DNA of 64,000 nt from assembly GCA_024679065.1 (NCBI GenBank), contig JAGIQG010000040.1, positions 6,200,001 through 6,264,000 of the forward strand. The letters run 5' to 3'. The position numbers and the translations under genes were made by a program. Below the pieces are notes generated by a model. It was not told where the DNA came from, did no database searches, and worked only from the letters and a program-made list of their open reading frames with translations. This DNA is from Sphyrna mokarran (lineage: Eukaryota). Shown piece after piece: positions 12,110-39,239 of this stretch (the first letter of the stretch is position 1; every line of letters begins with the position of its first letter).

Positions 12110-12547
12110 ATGAGTTCCCTGTGTGTTTTACTGATAATAATGGCCATACTGCCCGGTGAGTCTGAGCTCAAATCCTCAGTGCCTGTTTTACGGGATATAT
12201 TCACTCGCAGATTTTTCAAACATTCTATGTGTTGTTACAGGAACCAGTGGGCAAGATTCAGTTTCCCAGGGGCCGCCTGAATTAACGGCTCAGGAAGGAC
12301 AGACGGTAACATTGAACTGTAATTACACAACAAAATATAGTTTTCCAGATCTGTTATGGTACATCCAACATCCCGGGGAGGCTCCGAAATATTTACTGAA
12401 GATTTATAGCACGGGGGATGGAGAAGAGTCTCCAGATTTCCCATATCGGATCTCTGCTGATTTGAACCTGGACAGGAAAGTAGTTCCTTTAACGATCACT
12501 GGGGTCCGTGTCTCTGATTCTGCCGTGTATCAGTGTGTGCTGATCCC
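12110..12547 (+). CDS. TRAV: TCR alpha/delta V gene, family B (leader 12110-12155, V exon 12241-12547)
   Basis: Leader MSSLCVLLIIMAILP, intact splice sites, LNC..WYIQ..YQCVLIP (atypical end). Confidence 0.88.
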
Positions 12548-12586
12548 CACACTGTTACAGAGGCACAGTTAGTCCGTTCAAAAACC
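12548..12586 (+). other. RSS CACACTG-23-TCAAAAACC
   Basis: Abuts V exon; one nonamer mismatch. Confidence 0.88.
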
Positions 12587-12964
12587 AGCAAAGGCATTCT
12601 CACTTCCTCTCACTGTGTCAGATCTGTGATGCAGGTTGTGAACTGTTAATATAAACAAAGCAATCTTACAAAGAGCTAGTTTTACTTGCCAGAATGATCT
12701 ATTTCTGCAGTGCTGAACATGTGCCATTCTATGTAAAATAGTTGTTTCTGTGGCTTACGAGCAACTCTCTAAATGAAATACTCTGGAGTTGTTATCACAA
12801 CATTAAATAATACCCATCAGTCTCCCATCTCAAAGATTAAATCCGTGAAATCAACAACATTTGGCTAAATACCTTCTGTGTCATAACGATGTTGGATATT
12901 CAATCGTTTAGTTTTTTGAAACCGTTTGATAGATTTGTGAATGTTCAAGGTAAATAAGACACTT

Positions 12965-13815
12965 GGGAACATTAGAACATGAGAACTTGGAGCAGGGAAC
13001 AGGCCATCTGGTCCCTCGACCCTGCTCCACCATTCAATAAGACCACGGCTGATCCTTTCGTGGACTCAGCTCCACTTACTCGCCTAATCATAACCGTTAA
13101 TTCCTTTACCGTCCAAACTTTATCTATCTTTGCCTTAAAAAAACATTCAATGAAGTACCCTCAACTGCTTCACTGGGCAGTGAATTCCACAGATTCACAA
13201 TCCTTTGTAAAGAAGTTCCTCCTTAACTCAGTCCTAAATCTGCTTCCCCTTATTTTGAGCTATGCCCCCTAATTCTAGTTTCACCTGCCGAAGGAAACAA
13301 CGTCCTTGTTTCTATCTTACTTATTCCCTTCATAATCTTATGGATTTCTATAAGAGCTCCCCTCATTCTTCTTAATTCCAATGAGTGTAGCTCAGTCTTT
13401 GCTCCTCAACCAACCCTCTTAACCCCGGAATCGACCTAGTGAATCTTCTCTGCACCTCCCCCACTGCCAATACATCCTTTCTTAAACAACGAAACCAAAT
13501 CTCCAGGTGTGGCCTCACCAGCACACTATACAACTGCAACATAACCTCGCTGTTTTTAAACTATCCCTCTAGCAATGAAGGACACAATTTCATTTGTCTT
13601 CTTAATTGTCTGCTGACGTGCAAACCAACTTTCTGAGATGCTTGTGCCAAGATATCCCTGGTCCCTCTGATCAGCAGCATGCTGTAAATCTTTACTAATT
13701 AAATAATAGTCAATTTTGCTGTTATTCCTACCAAAATGGACGACTTCACATTTACCAACATTGCACTCCATTTGTCAGACTCTCGCCCCCTCACTTAGAC
13801 TATCTATATCCCTTT
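12965..13815 (-). mobile_element. CR1-like LINE 3' fragment
   Basis: Minus-strand peptide MECNVGKCEVVHFGRNN...SFIARGI; agaacat tail. Confidence 0.82.
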
Positions 13816-14004
13816 ACATATATGAAGGTAATACGAGAAATTTGATGTGACGTAGATCAGTTGTGAATTTATTCAATGGCGGAACAGGCCCTTTTGAAGG
13901 AGCAAATGGTTCGCTGCGTCTCCTATTCCTATTTTCTGAGGTGCTTCTGTCCAGTTCATCGTTCTGAACACAGATTCAAATGATTATTTTTCTTCACGTT
14001 TGAC

Positions 14005-14225
14005 GTCATGGATTGGAGAACAAAGACACTCTGAGATGATTGGATGAAATGTGGACCTCTGAGCTGATTGTGTCACCTGCTGACTCTAACAGAAATGAAC
14101 CAATCGCTAGTGAGGCCGAATATTACTCAACATCTTCTGAACTCTGAAGTGAAACAATTGAGATTTAACTCAACTTCCACACATTTTGCGGTACAACACA
14201 ATGATCTTCCCTTTATCGTTCCAAG
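14005..14225 (+). promoter_or_regulatory. Orphan V promoter (multi-CCAAT), paralog of the promoter at ~63610-63800
   Basis: Colinear with the reverse complement of 63655-63800 (attggagaacaaagacact..gattggatgaaatgt..gaaccaatcgc.agtgaggccg..tattactca); ends in a possible leader start at 14201 cut by a SINE. Confidence 0.7.
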
Positions 14226-14525
14226 TAAGTAAAGTTTATTTATTAGTCAAAACTAGGCTTACAGTAACACTGCAATGAAGTTACTGCAAAAATCCCCTAG
14301 TCGCCACACTTCGGCAGTTCTTCAGGTACACTGAGGTAGAATTTGGCATGCCCAATGCACCTAACATGCATATCTTTCAAAGTATCGAAGGAAATCGAAG
14401 TACCCGGAGGAAACCCACGCAGATACAGTGAAAACGTGCAAACTCAGCACAGAGAGGGATCAAAGCCACGAATCGAGCCCAGATCCCCGGCGCAGTGAGG
14501 CTGTAGTGCTTACCACTGTGTCACT
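14225..14525 (-). mobile_element. tRNA-derived shark SINE
   Basis: aagtttatttattagtc tail, core, and tRNA-like head; same family as 18355-18650, 26550-26800, 32835-33075. Confidence 0.8.
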
Positions 14526-15260
14526 TTTGTTTCCAACAACCGGCTCATGACAGATAAAATCTGCACCCTTCACACCTGCAAAAATAGAAATTAGGACTTT
14601 AGCTGTGTTATTGTCGCTTTATTAGAAACAAGGGAATTAAATAATTGTACATAAAGGAAACAAAAGTGGTGTTGTGAGGAATGAGGAAAGAACAAAAATT
14701 CTGCCCAGTGAAGCAGTTAAGCTACCTCAGTGAGTAGTTTTAAGGCGAAGGTAGATACATGTTTGAACAGTAATGGAATTAAGGGTTATGGTGAGCGGGC
14801 GGCAAAGTGGAGCTAAGTCCACGAAAAGATCAGCTGTGACCTTATTGAATGGTGCAGCAGGGTCAAGGGAGCAAATGGCCTACTCCAACTCCTACTTCTT
14901 ACGTTCTTATGTGCTTATGTTCTTACGCAATTTCATAGCAGTGCCATTGTAAGCTGACTTACGACAGTCGTAAATAGACTTTAAACATAAACTTTTAGTT
15001 GATACAGGGATGGAAATAGCATGAAAGAAAAAATGGGAGCGAATCTATCACATATTGATTTGTGAAATTAATGTTCATTATAGATGTTAGTTAAAAGCAA
15101 CGAATAAAACTTCTCAGTTACTGCTCCCCTGTTCTTATTGGGTGTTGTATTCTGTGTTGGCATTTGTTTAATCACTGTGACCTTCACAGGCTGAGTAATC
15201 GGTCCTGTTTGGCACTGAATGCGCGCCTTCTGCTGATCATTAACTGGAACTTCAATCTGG

Positions 15261-15440
15261 AGTTATCGCCCGGGATCCGCTCGATCTCTGCATCAGTGTG
15301 GGCTCCGTGCTACATAAATACACTGCTCTGCCGGTGAAAAGCACCCCAGCGATATTGAAAGAAAGCATTTTATTTTTCTTGCTGAAACCAGCAGAAAGCC
15401 CCTCTCAAAACCTTGAGAAGTACATGTCCGTACTTTATAA
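15261..15440 (-). pseudogene. 3' remnant of a V gene with RSS CACACTG-24-GCGATAACT
   Basis: Minus-strand ..LSAGFSKKNKMLSFNIAGVLFTGRAVYLCSTEP; spacer and 3' flank homologous to the 41553 gene. Confidence 0.8.
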
Positions 15441-15957
15441 CGTCAACTTTGATTCATGTTTACATCCTTTCTTTGTGTGAACATTTAAGAATTTAATACT
15501 ATCAGTTTTTTTTTCTAGTCCCAAATTGTGTAACAGATTTATCAGTTTGGTCTAGGATATTAAGATCAGATAAGGGAATTGTCGAAGGTTCACACTGAAA
15601 TTGCCATTAGTTATGTGCATATGTCCATCTGTATAAAATTATATTTAATAAGAACAATGGCAGCAAAGAAAAAACGCAGCAACATAATCCAGCAACAATA
15701 TTCTGAAGTAATCTGAGATATCTATGATCTCCCACGTAGTGGTCACTGACCTCACTTTGCCACCAGTGGGAGTGCCCTCTTGTTTGTGTGTTTGTGTGTT
15801 CACTGCAGCAGGGGCAGATTGGATTACACAGAAAACTACTGCGATTGCTGGAATCTGAAACAAAAAGAGAAAACGTTGGAAAATCTCAGCAAGTCTGGCA
15901 GCATCTCTAAGGAGGGAGAAGAGCTGTGTTTCGAGTCCGGATGGCCCGTTTCTCAAA

Positions 15958-16500
15958 GCTGGATTATACAATGGTATGATACAGAGCAGTGATCCAGGGG
16001 AACTGGATTAATTGTGGGCTAACATAGCGATATGTTACAGAGGAATAATCCAGGAGAACTGGATTAGTTATTGGATTACACAGTGATACGTTACAGAGCA
16101 GCAATCCAGGAGATCTGGTTTAATTGCTGGATTACACGGTGATATGTTATAGAGCAGAAATCCAGAACTGTATTAATTGTCGGACTAGAAGTGATACGTT
16201 ACAGAACCGGAATCCAGGAGAATTGAATTAATTGTTGTGTTACACAATGATTTGTTACACAGCCATAATCCAGGAGAACTGGATTAATAATCCATTACAC
16301 ACTGATATGTTACAGATTAGGAATTCAAAATAACTGGATAACACAGTGATATGTCGCATAGAAGTAATCCAGGAGAACTGGATTAATTGTTGGATTACAC
16401 ATTGATATTTTACAGAACAGAAATCCAGGAGCACTGTATTAATTTTTGGATTAACAGTGATATGCTGCAGAGCAGTAATCCGGGAGAATAGAATTAATAA
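15958..16500 (+). repeat. ~56-bp minisatellite, ~10 degenerate units
   Basis: Unit GGATTA-CACAGTG-ATATGTTACAGA-GCAGTAATC-CAGGAGAACTGGATTAATTGTT; period 56 (16023, 16079, 16135). Confidence 0.92.
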
Positions 16501-16699
16501 TCCGCCTACATTATTTGGACTCCGATCACTGTAGGAGGGGCAATAAATCAACACGTGAAATTAAAGCTGAGTAAGTTGTGACACTAACAACGCAGGATGA
16601 GATAAATTCCTAATTGATTTAACAATGTTGTGGAGGGAAGGAAATCTGCCGTCCTTACCCACCATCGCTCAACTGGGACATGAGGCACTCCAGTTATAA

Positions 16700-17650
16700 A
16701 GTGACGGCAGTCCTGTATTAAGCTCTGTCTTTCCCGAATCGTTAATTCAGAGCATTTCTGACAGGAACTGAAGGAATTCAATCTTAACAGGGAAATAATA
16801 GTGGATGAATTATTTGGATTGAAGGCGAAGAAATTTCCAGAACCTGATAACCTTCACCTCTGCGCAGTCAAGGAAGTTGCCCGAGGAGCAGTCCATGCAT
16901 TGGTGGTAATCTTCCAAGATTATACAGACTCTGGAACAGTTGCTGCAGATTGAACGGAGCTAACGTAACCCCACTATATAAAAATGGAGGCAGAGAGAAA
17001 ACAGTTGCAGCAAGCAATAAATATAGCGAATGCAATGTTGGCCTTCAGAGTAAGGGATTCGAGTACAGGAGCAATGATGTCTTGCTGCAATGATATAGAG
17101 TCTCGATGAGGCCACACCTGGAATATTGCGTGCATTTTTATTTCCTTATCTGAGGAAGTACATTCTTGCTCTAGATAGAGTCCAGTGAAGATTTATCAGA
17201 TTGATTCCTGGGATAGCGTGTTTGATATAGGAGGATATATTGAGTAGGCTAGCATTAAGTTATTCGCTGGACTTCGGAAGAATGGGGAGGCATTCATGGA
17301 GACATAAAACTCCGACATTGATAATTAGGGTAGATGAGGAAAAGTTGTTCCCGATGGCGGGGAAGTCCAGGACAAGGGATCAGAGCCTGAGGATTCGGGG
17401 TAAACCTTTTAAAACTGAGATAAGCAGAATTTTCTGCACTTAGAGAGGAATAAACCGATAAAATTCACTACTACAGAAAGAAATTCTGGGCAGAATATTG
17501 TATTTTATCAAGAAGGAGATAGATGCAGTTCTCGGGGCTAAATGAGTCAAATGATACAGTGGGAAAAAAAGGAATAAATTACTGAGTAATAAGATAATGA
17601 CGATGGTGTCGGCTCGAACGGATGAAAGGTGTCCTCGTGCTCCTATTTTC
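16700..17650 (+). mobile_element. CR1-like LINE fragments
   Basis: KSPxPDxxHP-like and NVTPLYKNG-like RT remnants, RPHLEYCV, RVDEEKLFP. Confidence 0.78.
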
Positions 17651-18354
17651 TATTGGACACTGAATCATAATCATTCATTTCTGTAACACAAATACGGAAT
17701 GCTTCAGGGACTAAATGTAATCCCCGGATGTGACGTTGACTGTTAAATGTACAGTCAACTCACAGGGAGACAACGCCGTGTCCTTTAGAATTCATAGAAA
17801 TTGACAAAATGTTTCAATTGTGTTGAATGCAGCAGTCTGACATAGAAACCCACCCACTTGGAATGTGGCTTCACGTATTGAGAAACTGGCGTTTATCCAA
17901 GAACAGGATTGATTTCTCCACCAGAACTACTAATTATTACCCATGAATAAATGAAGGCTGCAGACATTTTTTTCTGGTTAATTATCTCTCTTCGGTGACT
18001 TTCCTGCTCTTTCTTTCTCTTTGTCACAGACTCTGTCTCTATGACGAGACACCCATTCAGTTAGGAAATTTCTTCACTGCTTTAAAATGGCTGGAAGTGA
18101 TTATAAATAATTCAGGGCGGCGTGACCTTTATTGCGGTGTTTTCACATTGACACACGACAATCAGTAAATATCCTTCCTGTTTCATTCAACAAAACAAAG
18201 GTGACCAGAGACCACGAAGATGGCACGGCCAATATAAATTAACGAGAAATAGGAACTGAATAAGCGTTTAAAGGTGAAGGAGTAAGAGGATTTGTCAGCT
18301 GCTGTAAAGAGAATGAGTAATAAACACATTACCTGATCAGTAAATAAAAATAAA

Positions 18355-18650
18355 GCTCCTTTATTAGTCACAAATAGGCTTACATTTGCATTGCAATGAT
18401 GTTACTGTGAAAATCCCATTATTGCCACATCTGGTGCCTTTCCGGGTACATTTAGGGAGAATTTAGCACGGCCAGTGTACCTAACTAGCACGTTTTTGGA
18501 CCATGGGACGAAACTGTAGTATTCGTAGGAAAGTCACGCAGATAGGGGGAGAGCGTGCAGACTCCACACTGACAATGACACAAGTCCCCGATTGAACCCA
18601 GGTTCCTAGCGCTGTGAGGCAGCAATGCGAACACTGCGCCACTGTGCCTT
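18355..18650 (-). mobile_element. tRNA-derived shark SINE
   Basis: Same family as 14225-14525. Confidence 0.8.
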
Positions 18651-18970
18651 TCTCAATCATCATTGCATGACTATTGGAGCTAAAAGTAATAAAGCGGTCA
18701 AATATTGCTGAAAGAATTAATCGATCACAGAATCCTACTGAATGTTCAGAACTTATTTGTTCAAACACAGCGTATCCTTGAATGGGACTCTGAATGATGG
18801 CTCCTGACAACATACCAGAATAATCTGATTAGTCAGAATGTCAACCACCAGTATCCCATAGAATGAGGGGAAAGTGAGGCTCCAGTGTCCTCCCCACCAA
18901 TGACAGTTATGGACACGGTAGCAAATCCCTGTTTGTAAACAAAATCCTCGATTGGCCCATTTTCATCATC

Positions 18971-19190
18971 ACGAACAAAAACATGCTGAAGCTCTGATCC
19001 TGCTGATAGTGTGTGATTTTATTTTTCTAACCAAATGCCATGTTTTAGCAATGTTTTGATCATGTGTATTGGTTTTTCTTTTGTTCACAGCCTTTCAGTG
19101 CGAGGATCAGAGCCCCCATCCTGAACGGGTGCTGTCATAGAAAGGGGATGGGTTGAACCGAACTATCGGCTCTCTGTTGGTTCTGGAAAC
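18971..19190 (+). pseudogene. Truncated V pseudogene of the 47491 family
   Basis: ttgttcacag|cctttcagtgcgaggatcagagcccccatcctgaac aligns with the 47345 exon start; start codon mutated to ACG, in-frame TAG, 3' half missing. Confidence 0.8.
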
Positions 19191-19328
19191 GGTTGGGTGA
19201 ATGTTTGATCCGAAGTTTTTCTGGTTTCCTCTCGCTGTGTTTGAGCAGCTGGCAGCGCCGCTGTTTATTGTGACTGAATCTGCCCACACTTGTAAACAAT
19301 CCGCAGTAGAACAGGAGATCCTATCTAG

Positions 19329-19367
19329 AGTTTTTGTACGGCGATGAGGATGTTTTCTATCACTGTG
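19329..19367 (-). other. RSS CACAGTG-23-ACAAAAACT
   Basis: Abuts V exon. Confidence 0.93.
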
Positions 19368-19845
19368 AGACTGAAAGCACAGTAATAGCCGCCAGCGTCA
19401 GTCAGCTGCAGACCAGAGATGGTTAAACCGGTGATTGCATTTTCGATCTGGAGGTCAGCAAAGAAACGAATTGTCGCAAAATCTGCTTTATCCTCTGTGT
19501 CCCAAGAGCTTTTCTTCACTATGAATTCCAGTTGCATGTCTGGGCGCTGTCGATACCAATGTAAGTAATAATTGGTGGCTGTGGTATCATAGCTACAGAT
19601 CAATGTCACTGCTTCTCCTTCTGCCTTACCAGCTGAGGGGAAGAGTTGAGTGACAGAATCTCCATTAGTCACATCTGAAAAAAAAACACAAATAAACATA
19701 ATCAAATAGAAACTAGTCAGTTCAGAGGTTGGAAATATTTGAAACATGCTTGATCAGTCAAATAAAGGGTGTAAAATAAAGTATTTAATCCGCAATTACC
19801 AGTCAAGAATGCTACCCACACAATCCAGATGCCGAACAGCCGCAT
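19368..19845 (-). CDS. TRAV: TCR alpha/delta V gene, family C (leader 19845-19800, V exon 19674-19368)
   Basis: Leader MRLFGIWIVWVAFLT, GT-AG intron, DSVTQ..LIC..WYRQ..YYCAFS. Confidence 0.93.
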
Positions 19846-20904
19846 TGCCTCTGTCTGCGCTGTAAAGGGGAGTTGAGTATTTGACAGAATGTTTTAAACC
19901 CCGCCTCCAGTAATCTGCCGGTGTAGCCTTATGGTGAACCGGAAACTAGCACAAATTAGTGAGTATGTTCACATTTTCTCAATAATTCTGATAGCTTTAG
20001 CATCAGGATAGTGGTATTCGTGAATCCAATTAAATTACGCTCTGTTAAGCTTTTTTAAATTTAATTCCAGCGTCACTGGTTTATTTGTGCATCCTTGACA
20101 ACCTCGGGAAAGGTGATGAACCGCCTCCCTGAAACATTGCTTTTCAACTGAACTTTATTAACATGCAGAGGGGGCGGGTGTAATTTATTAAAGTCTTCGG
20201 ATAATAAAAAGTGATATTACATAATCAGCTGTAGAGAGAGACAGAAAATCACTGTCAAGGGTTACGTGGAGTTTATGTCACAAGACAGTTGGAATCATGA
20301 ATAGAAAAATATGCTATTCGATTTGCAGGGAAGAGAAAGGAAGTATTAAACAGTGTAATTAATAGGAAACTATTCCTTACTGGTTTGCAGAGCAATTTGT
20401 ATGTTCTTGTACACAAAACACAGACATATAATCTAATGATGGAGCTATCAAAAAGATAGGATAACTGGATGTTGTCCTTTATTCCAAAGCTGACGATGTT
20501 CAGAGAAATTAAATTAAATACTGTTGCGATTGCACTGAATGTTGGCGATATTCAACTGGAAAATAGTGCACAGCCTTAGTAATTAAGAAACCGATTAAAA
20601 GGAATTATTTACTTAAACGTCACTTCTGTCCTGCTCTCTGACACCACTGCGTATTTCTCTGCCATAAATGTAGTGAAAAAGAAAATACATAGAAAATCTT
20701 ATATGGAGATATCCAGTTGGGTCTCACCAGAAGGCGCTGTAAGAGTGTTAAACGGCAGCGACAATGGAAATGACACCGCGAGCGTTGAAAAGACCTTCCA
20801 AAAATGTCTTTAAGTAGGAAACGACACACAGGTGAGAATAAATTCCGGATTTCAGTGCATCAGTGAAACTGGACCTCATAAATGCAAGTATGCAGCACAA
20901 TTGT

Positions 20905-21430
20905 CACACAAACATAGAAAAAGAGAAGTAGGAGTAGGCCATTCGGCCCTTGAACCCTAATCTGCCATTTATTATAATCCAATTCAATATCTTGAGACCG
21001 CCTCCCTCTCCCATTTTCCATATGCCGTTTAGCCCCAAGAGCTATATCTAATTTATTCTTGAAAGCACACAACGTTTTGGCCCCAGCTACTTCCTTTGGG
21101 AGGGATTTTCCACACATTCATCGCCGTTTGGTGAAGCAATTTATCCACAGCACAATTCTAAAATGTTTACTCCTTACCTTCAAACTCTGATTCCTAGTTC
21201 TGGATTCTCCCATCATTGGGAACATTCTTTCTGAATTTACCCTGTCTGCCCCTGTTAGAATGTTGTAAGTTTTTATGACATCCCCTCTCACTCCTCTGAA
21301 CTCTATTGAATGTAATATTAACCGATTCAGTCTTCATTATAAGACAAATCAGCCATCCCAGGAATCAGCCTGATAAACCATCCGTGCCTTCCCTCTATAG
21401 CAAGGACATTCTTTATCAGAAAAGGACATC
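20905..21430 (-). mobile_element. CR1-like LINE 3' fragment
   Basis: SLPKEVAGAKTLCAFKNKLD peptide and typical 3' UTR. Confidence 0.75.
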
Positions 21431-21992
21431 AACGCCCTTTCCAAATTCAGTTAACCATTTCTATTTTTATACTGAAATCTTCTCAATCCGAAGGCCAACA
21501 TACCCATTTTTAAAGGGGGGAAGGGGGATCTTGCAATTAAGTTTGGCTGCAATAATGGCCCGTCCTTTACCCATCTCCCGTGTCACCTTCCCGATCTTTG
21601 TTTGCAGATTATGTTTGATCAGAGTGTGTTGCTAGGGAAGAGGCAGTTCATAGATAATCAACAGATTGCAAAAGAAATGATAGTGGAAACAAACAGAAAA
21701 AGTGCCCCTCTCCCCATGCACACTGCGCTCGTCTGTGCAATGCTTGAATTTTTTTCCCCAGAATATCGGATTACTAGTGATAACTAACAGATCAGACTTT
21801 CATCCGGAATTCCTGTCTCTAACAAAAGAGTAACTTATTTTTGCTGTACTTCTGGTAGTGGCTTAATGGCTGTTTGATCCGAGGATAATTTGATATCCTG
21901 TGTGTGTGTTTGAGCGTTTGATTACGCGCTGCTCATTGTTGCGCTCTCCAGCGATTAGGCACAAACACGCACAGACTGGAGCTCCAATTCAG

Positions 21993-22473
21993 AGTGTCTG
22001 CACGGCAATGAGACTACTTTCTATCATTGTGAGACTGAAAGCGCAGAAATTGACGGCATTATCAGTCAGAGTAAACTCGACATAGTTAAACTTGTGTCTT
22101 TATCCCTAGCCTGTAGCTCGGGATAAAGCAAATTTAGCAAAATTTGTGTTATTTTCAGAACTCCAGGATTCTTTTCACATTATAAGCTCGGGCTGTTCAT
22201 GTGGTGCTGCCGATAACCGTTTAAATAATAGCTGCTCCTTGTGAAGAGAGGAATGTCACTGCATCTCCTTCTGTCTCTATATCTGTGAAGAGCCACTGAG
22301 TTTAGAATTAAAATGTGACAGGCCTGAAAAGAAATCGCACAGCTAAATATGAGATTGAAAGTGTGCTAAGATGTAAACAATAAATCTTTGAATTTCAATC
22401 AAAGATGAAATTGCTCCTTCGGCACTTTTATCTGCAATACTCCCCACATTATCCAGGAGCTGAGTAACCACAT
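21993..22473 (-). pseudogene. V pseudogene, family C
   Basis: Paralog of 19845 including 3' flank; lost first Cys and Trp (NGYRQ), stops and indels; RSS CACAATG-23-GCAGACACT. Confidence 0.85.
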
Positions 22474-24418
22474 TGTGACTGCCCGTTCTATAAAAGTGCA
22501 GTTTGATATTTGAAGACACCCGTTCTAAATCCTGCTCTCAACTCACTTCCTGGTATCGCACGTGTTGCTGTGAGACTAATAAATGGTGAGCAAGCTATCA
22601 ACAAACCCCAATTTGGATTACAATCTGTACATGCTTATCCACGACATTTTTAAATCAGTCTTCATTGGATTCTCTTTCAGCTCTCTGTTCACTTCCATAG
22701 GGAAGACAAAACTGGAAATTTCACTGAATTGGCTGATTGGATAACAAATTGTCCCTATATTGGTCCCTATATGGGAATCTTCAACAATAGGCATAGCCTA
22801 AAGACAAGGATATGTCATTAGGACGTTAGGACGGCGGCGTGGGCTCGTTGGGCCGAAGGGCCTGTTTCCCGTGCTGTGTTGCTCTTTGTTCTTTGTTCTT
22901 TGTTCACACCAAGTATGGGATTATTGGAAAGAAAAATGAAACAGAGGGAGGCTGCAGATATTATTTGGATGGAAATAGAGTCTAGTCTTAGGAACACAGT
23001 CGTATCGTCAAACACAGTGATGACTACAACATGGAGTACCGTTTAATGAGTCCAGCTGGTCAAATGCAGTAATAAGTAGTCTTTTCAAATATGAAGAGAA
23101 ACATGGTTCAATGTAATAATGTCAAACAGATGATTCAGACCAATAGATATCATAATTCTAATACGAATATATCAAAGAATCGGATGCATATAATAGAACA
23201 CATTGCATTATTGCGCTGAATTATAGAACTGGATAAAATATCAGTTTGCCTGACCTCTCGAATCATTCAAACAACAACATAATATAAGAAAACCAATCAT
23301 CTGTAAAGACACTGATTATTTTCATTGGGAGCAGAACAGTTACCTTCCCTTGATGTTCAATGGCACAATGCACAAGGTATTTATTCCCCGCCGTCAATAT
23401 GTTGGATTGATCCCCCTAATGTTGCTGTTGTAGCAGCACTTCAGAGGATGAATATTCTGTGATGAGTTCTTCACCACCTGAACTCTAATGCTGGCTGTGG
23501 TGTGTGAAGCCGATTGGATGCACTGTAGTAAACCATCAGGACTTTTTCGAATGTGCCTTCAATTACCATGATCCGAATCACTCAGATGGGCAACGGATGT
23601 ATGGATGACATCCACTTCCTCATCAAAGACCTTCCGAATTATGCGTGCAGTGCTGGTCCTTAATGTCTCGGGGCGTTATATTCTAACACTCGAGCTAACT
23701 CTGCCGGTGAACCTGAAACACGTGGGTTGCTGTTGTTGAAAAAAGCTGCTCATCACCACCTTCTCAGTGTGAACCAGAAACTTGCACTGAGCACCTGCCG
23801 TATTGGTAGTAGATGTGAAAAAATGCGGAAACAATGGCTCAGAACCACAAACACCAGCCCTTATTGTTCTAGTTTTTTCTACTTGTTCCTTCATCCACTA
23901 TTAGTATTTGCGTTCACAGTTTAAAAATGTTCGCTTTTGTTTTTATCTTTTCTCCATTTCCTTTCTCGTCTCCCGAAGTTTTTCATACTTTTATCCTCTT
24001 TCTGATTTTGTAATTTGAAACTGTTTTACAGTTACCTAGAATCACTTGTTCAGCACATTTTCCTTAAGCAAGATTGCTGAGACAGGGAGGGAGGGGTGAA
24101 TTACTCAACAAAAACCACGCCCAGCCCGATGCTCTATCACAATCTGTCGCTCCTCCCCCGTCAACTGAATGATGCTCTGAGTGATGCGGCCAGCTGCCGC
24201 AAGAGGAAATGGAAAATATATCCGACAATGTAATCTCCTGTCAAAACCCAGTTAATACAATTGCTGCATTATAACAGCAGCAGAACTGTACTAGGCACGA
24301 GTTTGTCTTCTGCTATAATCTCTATGCCAACTCGTTTCTCACCTTATGGCAATAGATTACAACAGTAAATAAAACTGCTATTCCAAGGTTTTTTTTGGGG
24401 AGAGTCATAATCGGCCCG

Positions 24419-24840
24419 ATGTCTTCCCGTCATTTCATTATGTTGTGGTTGGTGTTCGGTACGTATATACATTTCTTGTATCTGCTTAGAATAATGTGAT
24501 GTTTACAGCACAATCCACTGATCATTTTTATTACAGGGAGGATTCGGGCAGATTTGGTATCACAACCTGAGACAGCTCTCGGCGTGACTGAAGGAGACAC
24601 TGTGATTATAGATTGTAATTACACAACAAATCTCTTTAATCCCGATCTCTATTGGTACAGACAGCACACAAACCACCTTCTTAGTTTTATTTTGCACCGG
24701 GATAACAATCGAAGATCAGACGCAGTTTTCACCAAGGGAAGATTCACGGCCGGTCAGGCTAACGCAGAGAAAAGGTTTCCTCTGAGGATCGTTCGAGCAG
24801 AAATCCAGGACACTGCTGTCTATTCCTGTGGTTTGAAGAT
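24419..24840 (+). CDS. TRAV: TCR alpha/delta V gene (leader 24419-24458, V exon 24537-24840)
   Basis: Leader MSSRHFIMLWLVF, GT-AG intron, LVSQ..IDC..WYRQ..YSCGLKI. Confidence 0.9.
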
Positions 24841-24879
24841 CACAGTGGTTTAAAACTCATCTGTCTCTGTACAAAAACC
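24841..24879 (+). other. RSS CACAGTG-23-ACAAAAACC (consensus)
   Basis: Perfect heptamer and nonamer. Confidence 0.95.
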
Positions 24880-25339
24880 TCAGTGCTTTCAAACAGTCGT
24901 TCTCTCAAGATCACAAGAACCTGCCCTGCTCTGTAAGGAACTGTTCCTGCTTACAATATGTTAGTCCTGCTTCGGAGTTAGAGATTTCCGGTCAAGGTCC
25001 ACTCCGGAGATGTCAGTCCAGACTGTTGCCGAGTGTCAACACCAAGAATGTACTGGACAGCCATAGTTGCTATATTTCACACTAGACATTAATCTTAGGT
25101 CACACATCTTTTATGCAAAATATCCCAGAACATTATTTTAGAAAATCATTGTGGGTTTCATACAATCGTGGAATCACACAGTGCAGGAGGAGACCTTCGG
25201 TGCATTGAGTCTGTACTGAAACACGAGAAACTCCCACATCTTAGCAATTAACCCATAGCCCTGAAAGTTATGAGGAGCCTAGTGTTCATTCAGGTAATTT
25301 CTGATTCCAGAGATGAGGGAGAGGGGTGGGTGTGGGTTA

Positions 25340-25645
25340 GCTTCTGAGGAGAGACTGAGTAGATTTTGGGCCTGTACTCGTTGGAATTTAGAAGGCTGAG
25401 AGGACACGTTATAGAGACATATAAGATAATGAAAGGGCTAGAAAGGGTAGAAGCAGGGACGTTATTTCCACTTAGAATGGAAACAAGAACTAGAGGGCAC
25501 AGCCTCAAAATAAGGGGAAGTCAATTTAGAACAGAGTTGAGGAGAAACGTTTTTCTCCCAGAGGGTAGTGAATCTTTGGAATTCTCTGCCCATTGAAGCA
25601 GTGGAGGCTACCTCATTAAATGTGTTTAAGTCAGAGGTAGATATC
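25340..25645 (+). mobile_element. CR1-like LINE 3' fragment
   Basis: LGLYSLEFRRLRGHVIETYKIMKGLERV..RTRGHSLKI peptide. Confidence 0.85.
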
Positions 25646-25884
25646 AGGCAGAAATTGACGGCAATGTCAGTCAGCATCAAACTTGACACAGTTAAACTTG
25701 TGTCTTTATCCCCGGCCTGAAGTTCTGCAGAAACACGCATTTTAGCAAAATTTATTTTATCTTCAGAACCCCAGAATTATTTTCACATTATAAGCTCGCG
25801 CTGTTCATCTGGTGCTGCCGGTAACCGTTTAAATAATAACTGCTCCTTGTCGTATCATATAAAAAGGTGAATGTCACTGCTTCT
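25646..25884 (-). pseudogene. Internal V fragment, family C, bounded by LINE pieces
   Basis: Close match to 22040-22265 (same NGYRQ lesion); both ends replaced by LINE sequence. Confidence 0.82.
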
Positions 25885-25889
25885 GTAAG

Positions 25890-26430
25890 GCCGTCAACAC
25901 AGCCTAGGTTAACAAAAGGGTTTTCCTCTCATCCCCCCAAAACCGTTACCCTCTCACCTTGAACTTGTGTCCCCTCGTGACTGACCCTTCAAACAAGAAC
26001 AGCACATTCCTTTATACTCTGTCATGGTCCTTGTAATCTTGTACACCTCGATCAGGTCGCCCCTCAGTCTTTTCTGCTCTAACGAAAACAACATAAGCTT
26101 ATGCAAACTCTCTTCATAAATGTTCCATTACAGCAAAGCCCTGGTGAATCTCGTCTGCACACTCTCCAATGTAATCATACCTTTCAGATAGTGTGGCGAC
26201 CACAATTGCACTCAGTACTCTTATCTAATCTACACAACTCCCACATGACCTCCCAGATAATCTAAACTGCACCTCGATAGATAAAGACAAGTATCTCATA
26301 TGCATTTTTCACCTTCCCATTAGATGCTTTTCTGTCTTCAGAGATTTGTTCACAACCATGTCAATGTCCCTTTGTTCCACAGAAATACTCGGTGTCATGT
26401 CATTCATTGAATAATTCCTTGCCCACTTAT
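25890..26430 (-). mobile_element. CR1-like LINE fragment
   Basis: Reverse complement of L-EY-C-VQ-W-SP and RRLRGDLIEVYKI motifs. Confidence 0.75.
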
Positions 26431-36755: not shown

Positions 36756-37484
36756 GAATCCACTCAACAGGCAAATTCCACCTTGCATTAAACTGGATCC
36801 GCCAGCTGGGGACGCCAAAGAGACTCACTCAGCAACACAAACAGTCAATTTTCTGACTGAAATCAGGTTTTGTGTGCTGGTGAACTGCCACCTTGAACCG
36901 CTGCAATGGCTGAGGTGTAAGTACACCCACACCGCTCCATTTACTGCTGTCCGGGCTGAAGAAAAGAATCGGGAAACACGTGTACGTTCAGCTGTTTGGA
37001 ATTAGCAAGAAACCAAAGATCTGACTGGATAAGAGCTTTTCACTCGTAGAAATGAACTAACTCACAGAAGCAGAGGACGTAACTCAATAATAACTTAATT
37101 TCATGCTCTGTTCAACTCGACCAATAACTTCATGCAAACATGTTGGTATTTGCTTTGAATTTGCTCCTCATTATTGCAGCTTTCTTAAAAGACACTTTTA
37201 CAAAGAACAAAATACCGTTCGTGCAGTCATGTGTTCTGCGTTAACATTATTTTCTCTCGATTTCTAAAGTGATCTATCACATGATGATGTTAAGCATAAT
37301 TATCGGGTGGTAAAAACACCGGGTTTAGTTTGGCCAAAACGAGCAATAGCAATGACAGCGCACTCTGATCGCATTCAGCTCCGTTCCGTCAACTCAGACA
37401 ATGCACTGCATACGAGAAAGGAGGCAAAAGCATCAAATATTTGCCTGTGACCGAATATGTTACCTAGAATCAAAGCAAAGTATT

Positions 37485-37930
37485 GCTAAAGTTCAGAAGG
37501 AGGCTATTCGGCCATCGAGCCTGCACTGACAAGGATCCCACACAGGCATTATACCCATAACTACATGTAACCCTTGTTAATCTCCCTGAAAATAAGGGTC
37601 AATTTATCATGGCCAATCACCCTCATCTGCACATCGTTGAAGTGCAGAAGGAAACCGGTGCACCTGGAGCAAATCCACGCAGAGGGAGGGAGAATGTGCA
37701 GATTCCACTCAGACACTCACCCCCAAGGCCAGAATTGAGCCGGGTTCCTAGTGCTGTGAGAAAGCAGTGGTCCAAGACTGGAACTGAATCCGGGTCCTCA
37801 GTGCTGTGAAACAGCAGTGGCCCAAGACCAGAATTAAACCTGGGTTCCCGGTGCTGTGAGTTAGCAGGGGCTTAAGAATGGAAATGGATCTGGGTTCCTG
37901 ATGCTGCGAGACTGTAGCAGCAACCACTCT
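37485..37930 (-). mobile_element. SINE with four tandem ~50-nt copies of its tRNA-like head (37723-37920)
   Basis: Repeated ccaagaccagaattgaacctgggttcc.gtgctgtgag..agcagtgg units. Confidence 0.78.
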
Positions 37931-39239
37931 ACATCAGAAAGAACAAATTTATTTTTCTCTTCCCGAATGTCGATAAGTTTTTTTTCATTTCTCAGCGAGT
38001 TCTGAGTAAAGTGAAAGTTTATTCTGTTTAGGAAGTGAGGTGTGAACCATCTCAGAGAATATCCTTCTGAACGGACCCGTTATTCATGGACTGGGATAAT
38101 GTAATAAACTATAGTTGTACTTAAGGGTATTTTCAAAATAAAATTATTAAATTGACTGAATTAGTGTTTATAATAATGGCTCATAATTGGCCCCTATCCT
38201 GTTGAGCTGTCGACTCGTAAACTTGTGTCCCTGCCATACGTTGTATCGATTTCACTCCGATTACAGCAAAGGAGAGCACGAGCATGTTCCAATCTTAATG
38301 ATTGCAGCACAAAACTCACAATTTCACAACTAAAATGAGAATTCGTGTTTGTGGTCACGTTTTTGTGTGTTGGATCGCGTGCTAGGTATTATTTTTGGTC
38401 TGTTTCCCTGTCCAGTAACAGTACCACTTCTGAAATATTACATTGATTATCCAACAAAGATTTTGTGCTTGTGAAAGGAAGGTTAAACGGTCAGGGGGCG
38501 CTGTGTTAACGCGTTTTGAGAAGAACCGACCATTGCCCTGTCCCAACCTCCCTTTGCTGTTCTGGTCATGAGCCATGCAGCCTGTCCTATGTTATTGGCA
38601 TATTGTTGAAGCAGCTCCTTCTTCGTCATTATTGGGATTTGCAGTGTAGTAGCGGAGCAAACTGTACTGTTCATCAGACAGGGTTACAGAATCAGGGAGC
38701 AGCATGCAGAAACACCTGGCACTGCTCCTCATCGTTATATCATTCCTCAATAAGTATCTCCTTTCTTGCAAAATATATATTCTCCCCAAGTGCGCTAACC
38801 AAGAGTCAAAGAAGTCTTGTTCATTGAGATAATGCAATGTTGACAAAAATTATGGTTTTCTGTTAGAATGGGGTCACGAAGCAGCAGTGGAACAATGACA
38901 CTCGGAAATGGCGGTGGAGGCGGAAGCAATGTCACTCAACCTGCAACATGAAGAGAGTGATCGTCGAAGTTATGTGTTCTGATACCGTCGTCACTCTGGA
39001 CAGCAGCAACACAGGGGATAATTTAAAAAAACCTCAGTATCACTGATCAATTCTTTTCAATGTTTGATGCTTGCAGCAAGTTTACAAAGCTAACCATTAA
39101 CAACGCAATGTTCTCTGCCTCTGCAGCATATTCCTGTGCTGTGAATCACAGAGTGTTCAAAGATAGAACATGTCCCGTACCAAATCACACACTGGATTTC
39201 TCCAGTTCGTGGTCAAGAGAAAGTTGACAATAATCATCA

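Follow-up and report, generated by a model that had tools for sequence, protein, structure and literature searches.

Results

The locus and its array

The window, a 64-kb stretch of a 2.77-Gb shark genome (G000, contig C994, 6,200,001-6,264,000), carries 12 intact-looking V exons with RSSs of 22-24-nt spacers on both strands. Positions below are those of the window, and positions in Mb without a contig name are those of C994. All four window V exons tested match Pfam V-set, and the single-domain PDB matches of the exon whose RSS starts at 19367 (V19367) are mostly TCR alpha and delta chains. The J segments, 76 in all with + strand 12-RSSs, cluster at 4.403-4.456 Mb. Whole V groups with 22-nt or 24-nt spacers, consensus nonamers and open exons occur at 855 and 42059 and at 4.91-5.12 Mb, and a second TCR alpha/delta-type V group at 3.33 Mb (L055, L131, L132), about 1.1 Mb beyond the J cluster on its other side, mirrors the cassette at 4.92 Mb and is 84% alike. 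IgH-like V-D-D-J clusters with real 12-RSSs sit among the TCR V genes at 5,097,020-5,098,572 and ~5,154,900-5,156,460; linkage of TCR alpha/delta with IgH miniclusters, as here, is an elasmobranch pattern in the excerpted text of PMC12227049, and by this pattern the source would be a cartilaginous fish.

Inside this V array, the 56-bp tandem repeat that the original prediction had reported is real: TRF places it at 15960-16488, with a period of 56, 9.8 copies and 71% matches. Here and elsewhere the units run head to tail, 1 to 10 of them per place, as in a minisatellite (Table 1). The neighbour of the array is a pseudo-V that has lost its promoter, its leader and some two thirds of its exon. 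A 128-bp dispersed repeat, presumably a retroelement end, interrupts the array on its left, and fragments related to the LINE on the 3′ side of the array also follow other V-linked arrays. A small hairpin attributed to the units (AATCCAG..CTGGATT) is intact in three of the ten and not in the rest; as a conserved structure it was rejected, with folding z values of -3.3, -0.1 and +0.6 in three window units. Rfam gave 0 matches at E<=1 over 15500-17000 and four further loci, and a 23-nt unit word gave 0 matches in metagenome contigs, which is uninformative for a shark repeat.

Table 1. Coordinates of the array, its RSS look-alikes and neighbouring features in the window
Feature	Position	Strand	Remarks
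Two-unit relic of the 56-bp repeat	6235..6328	+	~1.1 kb upstream of the V ending at 7713
Pseudo-V remnant, 24-nt-spacer group	15261..15430	-	heptamer 15300-15294, degenerate nonamer
V-cassette upstream region	15450..15815	-	66-72% like the flanks of three other array-bearing cassettes
Unit stub left of insertion, or target-site duplication of the inserted repeat	15819..15831	+	13 bp
Dispersed repeat interrupting the array's left end	15832..15959	-	128 bp; 26 matches in 904 kb, self included
Minisatellite	15960..16497	+	10 units of ~56 bp, three shortened; 71% matches
12-RSS look-alike	16079..16106	+	perfect heptamer, nonamer 5/9; 1.0 bits (J model), 1.6 bits (pooled)
12-RSS look-alike	16135..16162	+	heptamer 6/7, nonamer 6/9; 0.9 bits (J model), 1.5 bits (pooled)
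12-RSS look-alike	16243..16270	+	heptamer 6/7, nonamer 5/9; score negative
Look-alike	16298..16325	+	heptamer 6/7, nonamer 3/9 at 12 spacer, -9.5 bits; 5.3 bits with 22 spacer
Look-alike	16342..16369	+	perfect heptamer, nonamer 4/9; score negative
Best 12-RSS look-alike in the array	16398..16425	+	heptamer 6/7, nonamer 7/9; 2.2 bits (J model), 4.9 bits (pooled)
Decayed LINE fragment 3′ of the array	17037..17227	+	ORF of the LINE query matches RVT_1
Intact TCR alpha/delta-type V exon (V19367)	19329..19687	-	23-RSS heptamer from 19367; convergent with the array

A 52,484-bp block comprising 14120-64000 and DNA beyond the window (6,214,120-6,266,603) is 100% identical to 5,232,990-5,285,473 and is bordered on both sides by blocks 91-97% alike. 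Contig depth, which does not equal copy number, is ~41-47 at the window and 14-22 at a C771 control, a hint that the block may be a real recent duplication rather than an assembly duplicate. On another contig, C1548, 24 near-identical perfect 12-RSSs spaced ~30 kb apart at 81.09-81.85 Mb are probably an Ig light-chain cluster array.

RSS likeness of the units

The six heptamers listed in Table 1 and three quoted nonamers are present as the original prediction had it, and four of the heptamer variants do occur in real V RSSs of the window (7714, 49103, 9274 and 42059). The claim that each unit has a heptamer does not hold, CAC being absent from the units at 15960, 16012, 16177 and 16443 and kept in 6 of 10 (5 of 9 aligned units and the short tenth unit at 16288). 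The six CAC units have, in order, 4, 3, 4, 6, 5 and 2 nonamer mismatches; only one of them has two or fewer, versus 72 of the 76 J segments of the locus. The sequence 5′ of the heptamers at 16079, 16342 and 16398 consists of more units, with stops and no V motif; judged by V motif, no coding segment abuts them.

Units were scored with a position matrix over heptamer positions 4-7 and the nonamer, trained on the host genome's own RSSs and not equivalent to RIC. The J model comprises 47 distinct 28-mers from the 76 J segments, with duplicates collapsed and one segment with 6 nonamer mismatches dropped. Leave-one-out scoring of these 47 J RSSs gave a 5th percentile of 8.2 and a median of 17.6; the six CAC units score from -14.9 to 2.2 bits. 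With a pooled model of 47 J and 23 V RSSs (5th percentile 8.0 bits), the best window unit reaches 4.9 bits and exceeds only 2 of the 70 real RSSs. Reading the unit as a 22-24-spacer RSS was rejected, the best scores being 5.3 bits on the + strand and -8.6 or less on the - strand.

Three of the six CAC units fall within the top 1% of 2010 background CAC sites. A pooled-model score of at least 4 is reached by 5 of 2006 background CAC sites in the window and by 737 of 8811 sites, not inspected, in a 200-kb V-region stretch, where the high count is probably due to CA-rich repeats. Against 4000 dinucleotide shuffles, unit 16387-16442 gave P = 0.00075 at a 12 spacer and 0.003 at any spacer, and unit 16068-16123 gave 0.00125 and 0.0055, all of these P values being post hoc in that the repeat was picked for its RSS-like look. 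The least diverged unit, on C771, scores 8.4 bits, at the real 5th percentile, a value that none of 4000 shuffles reached with a 12 spacer and one of 4000 with any spacer. Outside V arrays the top-scoring units reach 8.2 (C369) and 7.2 (C771) in the J model, and V-linked units score below units away from V genes. Three other arrays, CA-rich, pass a similarly loose test (244 overlapping TRF rows, 1.04 Mb), and a perfect heptamer with a 7/9 nonamer occurs at two V-free places, C882 and C1437, with no V within 9 kb. The RSS likeness of the unit family is above composition and background; by nonamer, coding-segment abutment and conservation, the array does not behave as a physiological 12-RSS.

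Conservation and divergence

In nine aligned window units (the short unit at 16288 left out), identity to the majority unit reaches 0.83 in the heptamer and 0.84 in the nonamer, compared with 0.88 in the spacer and 0.89 in the remaining columns, and random columns are at least as conserved as the RSS columns with a probability of 0.95; the hairpin half of the unit is slightly better conserved. CAC is retained in 11 of 21 V-linked units and 12 of 18 others. Nonamer changes run 15 toward and 15 away from the consensus in V-linked units, and 13 toward and 4 away in the others. Between the cassettes at 4.927 and 3.331 Mb, four orthologous unit pairs show differences of 0.12-0.18, and the flanks differ by 0.16 and 0.18. 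Each window unit is nearer to little-diverged units elsewhere than to most of its array neighbours (within-array mean 0.22), which would fit independent decay of the window units from one unit. These comparisons come from one genome, and the conservation tests are weak, but consistent, because the units are not independent.

Distribution in V cassettes and V-free places

DNA and pattern searches, which give lower bounds, place the repeat at ~17 sites (16 matches and two fragments): 11 on C994, one each on C742, C369 and C771, two on C783 and a weak 27-bp fragment on C749. The C742 copy has the same match statistics as that at 4.927 Mb, so that 12 of the ~17 places are on C994 or its near-duplicate C742. 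The C369 array has 10 units at 88%, and that on C771 has 4 + 4 units, inverted. A profile search of 0.8 Mb of C994, with most of 5.30-6.19 Mb outside it, found only places already listed.

Ten places are V-linked and have common cassette flanks. Four arrays (4.927, 3.331 and 5.446 Mb, and that of the window) are each upstream of a V from the 24-nt-spacer group and in the opposite orientation to it, and their left flanks are homologous (66-84%); the relics at 6235 and at 6.277 Mb have right flanks in common with the first three of these cassettes. In three cassettes the array is 1.3-1.6 kb upstream of the RSS; at 5.446 Mb it sits between head-to-head V genes. On either side of the J cluster, the copies are oriented away from it. 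The array accompanies four of the eight 24-spacer Vs examined, two of them open and two broken, and is missing from the other four, which are all open. Unit number at V-linked places ranges from 2 to 10, and the longest V-linked array adjoins a pseudogene. Seven places are V-free: no V was found over 80 kb on C369, 40 kb each on C771 and C783 and 9 kb on C749, nor within 200 kb of two array places at 4.70 Mb. The repeat is thus not confined to V arrays, though the family is low-copy and not scattered genome-wide.

Several other features lie near arrays. CTCF-like words stand ~50 bp from two arrays, at 4,927,017 and 3,331,840, and also ~60 bp behind several 22- and 24-spacer V RSSs. At 4.700-4.702 Mb (L053:4986-7163), a TATA-like word and possible short exons are enclosed by a pair of array fragments in facing orientation, 2 kb from one another and each with a TG run at its end. 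On three contigs, arrays have single-exon ORFs of rhodopsin-family GPCRs at a distance of 4-13 kb (C369 near 37,000-37,950, a 7tm_1 match; C783 near 51,858,400; C994 near 5,248,200, window ~29,350).

Linkage to a SINE

At some V-free places the array adjoins a dispersed element that is presumably a SINE. It starts, on the same strand, 1-2 bp after the array on C369, on C771 and at the first C783 place (C783a) and 30 bp after it at 4.702 Mb, adjacency for which the chance by density is ~0.3% each; it precedes the array at the second C783 place (C783b) and is absent at 4.700 Mb. For each of the SINEs at C369, C771 and C783a, the nearest of 102 copies is one of the other two, although the C369-C771 pair ranks only 9th and 30th, and a variant common to all three is found in 4 of 103 copies. 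We infer from these likenesses that the three copies may descend from one array-plus-SINE source. Retrotransposition and DNA duplication are indistinguishable as its route, given junctions that differ (SINE positions 111, 98 and 54), a C771 copy that is inverted in part, and the absence by eye of target-site duplications around array and SINE at the three places.

The C771 copy (L005:1501-1976) consists of four forward units, an inverted SINE 5′ end, four reversed units and the rest of the SINE, an arrangement that resembles 5′ inversion of a retrotransposed RNA. A heptamer-to-heptamer "signal joint" at its centre was rejected, what lies there being, by eye, the inverted SINE 5′ end. A RAG/Transib-type transposon end was likewise rejected: the ends of the inverted copy fall at unit positions 27 and 1, whereas the heptamer is at position 12.

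Discussion

The array is, with a probability of roughly 0.78, a low-copy 56-bp minisatellite upstream of a broken V in the shark TCR alpha/delta locus, likely a neutral passenger whose 12-RSS look is likely fortuitous. Its occurrence away from V genes and its decay, as fast as that of its neighbours, argue that it is an ordinary passenger and not a control element, and the simple-repeat fallback of the original prediction is the best fit. We infer both its neutrality and its route of spread. One ancestral array in a cassette would have spread through V-gene duplication, an array-plus-SINE composite would have been copied elsewhere by retrotransposition or DNA duplication, and each unit would then have decayed on its own.

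The unit might instead be a captured real 12-RSS or RAG-transposon end that was amplified with its flanks and is now decaying, an account of origin only, which is compatible with present neutrality and which we consider unlikely. The score of the C771 unit, unmatched by any shuffle at a 12 spacer, and the concentration of the family on the antigen-receptor contig speak for such an origin, as does the spacer, in which 8 of the first 12 bases are the same as in the V 22-spacer RSSs near 855; yet this last match has P = 0.10, and at a cryptic RSS frequency of 5e-4 per bp in mammals (PMC2193808, section 19, as excerpted) a 56-bp unit has a ~3% chance of containing one. No in-register donor was found among 109 real RSS contexts, a sample with TRD, TRB, TRG and most Ig D/J signals outside it (best 21 of 52 positions, P = 0.35), and a genome-wide motif search returned array units and scattered matches, with no V at the three non-array matches examined. 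Arrays end, by eye, at varied unit positions, only the 6235 relic and its duplicates starting at the heptamer column, and none was found to end at a RAG cut site. An amplified RSS relic, as the original prediction suggested, is an improbable but tenable origin. A larger version of the idea, in which a captured real 12-RSS was amplified and, as a mobile minisatellite, planted RAG targets in shark TCR V cassettes and on other chromosomes, with RAG cutting there in thymocytes or germ cells deleting and inverting V genes and helping to drive V-array turnover, strikes us as highly improbable.

A regulatory role unrelated to RAG, with the array serving a V cassette as a spacer, insulator neighbour or factor-binding array, is very unlikely. 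The constant place upstream of the RSS in three cassettes, the position between head-to-head Vs at 5.446 Mb, the CTCF-like word near two arrays and the slightly better conserved hairpin half of the unit would suit it, but array divergence is like that of the flanks, unit number varies from 2 to 10 with the longest V-linked array beside a pseudogene, and four intact 24-spacer Vs do without an array. Also very unlikely is a decoy role under selection, in which the array would act as a cryptic 12-RSS to delete or invert the V genes near it in thymocytes or germ cells. The geometry put forward for it is correct: the - strand RSS of V19367 is convergent with the array, a join with which would be a deletion, and the + strand Vs at 7714-12548 run in the same direction as the array, so that joining would be inversional. 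The array also shares its strand with the J 12-RSSs, copies flanking the J cluster point away from it, and the best unit has a nonamer of 7/9. This decoy-like orientation is explained, however, because the place of the array in the V cassette is fixed. The claim of a decoy or deleting element is unsupported, with scores below almost all real RSSs of the locus, no extra conservation of RSS columns, divergence equal to that of the flanks, intact array-free Vs, and V-linked units that score under V-free ones. At mouse Tcrd, the off-target joins of a bound RSS fall on CAC sites that are convergent with it (PMC4995090, excerpted text); were this rule carried to the shark, the sites convergent from the J cluster would be those on the array's - strand, and within units these score -15 or less.

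The passenger reading leaves room for some cutting. In mouse thymocytes, 11 of 33 recombined cryptic sites lay below the classifier threshold (bioRxiv 10.64898/2026.09.01.748595, section 10), and weak sites recombine rarely regardless of score (same preprint, as excerpted), from which low-level cutting of the array is possible. Low-rate RAG cutting of the best unit may occur, as at any cryptic site, without selected function. No joint was found at array heptamers among 15 of 128 joints listed (contigs of one DNA run, 12000-26000), a comparison that is no evidence on RAG use because contigs drop rare variants. As a passenger the array is of little consequence, and it marks one V-cassette duplication lineage. 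If RAG does use it, the V array would contain a self-amplifying target for recombination, whose ten graded natural variants in one place would be a ready test of shark RAG specificity.

A literature search, with most subscription papers and supplements outside it, found no shark TCR-locus repeat with RSS likeness, and the nearest parallels come from other systems. The VNTR of primate SVA elements is a minisatellite carried by a retroposon, and, as with the shark array, a tandem repeat and a SINE are found joined in a single orientation at dispersed places; the shark composite differs in having only 3-4 copies, differing junctions and no target-site duplication seen, and would at most be a candidate element family. 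With the TRAJ 12-RSSs of the locus (76 J), the look-alikes have in common the CAC start, 12-nt spacing, A-rich nonamer core and strand, but TRAJ signals flank coding segments and the array flanks none.

Cryptic sites in mouse TCR-beta V genes (bioRxiv 10.64898/2026.09.01.748595, as excerpted) and CAC off-targets in Tcrd (PMC4995090, as excerpted) are likewise weak sites among V genes, with rare non-functional RAG joins, although they are single sites demonstrated by sequencing, whereas the shark look-alikes are tandem and recognized from sequence alone. Mouse gamma-satellite and CA repeats, in the sections of PMC2193808 drawn on here, are also tandem repeats with an RSS look-alike in the unit that was amplified with the repeat. 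The gamma-satellite is a very abundant 234-bp repeat whose 23-type sites have been shown to recombine; the shark array, read here only as DNA, is a low-copy 56-bp repeat of 12-type sites, partly inside a V array, and adds one example of a repeat-borne cryptic RSS.
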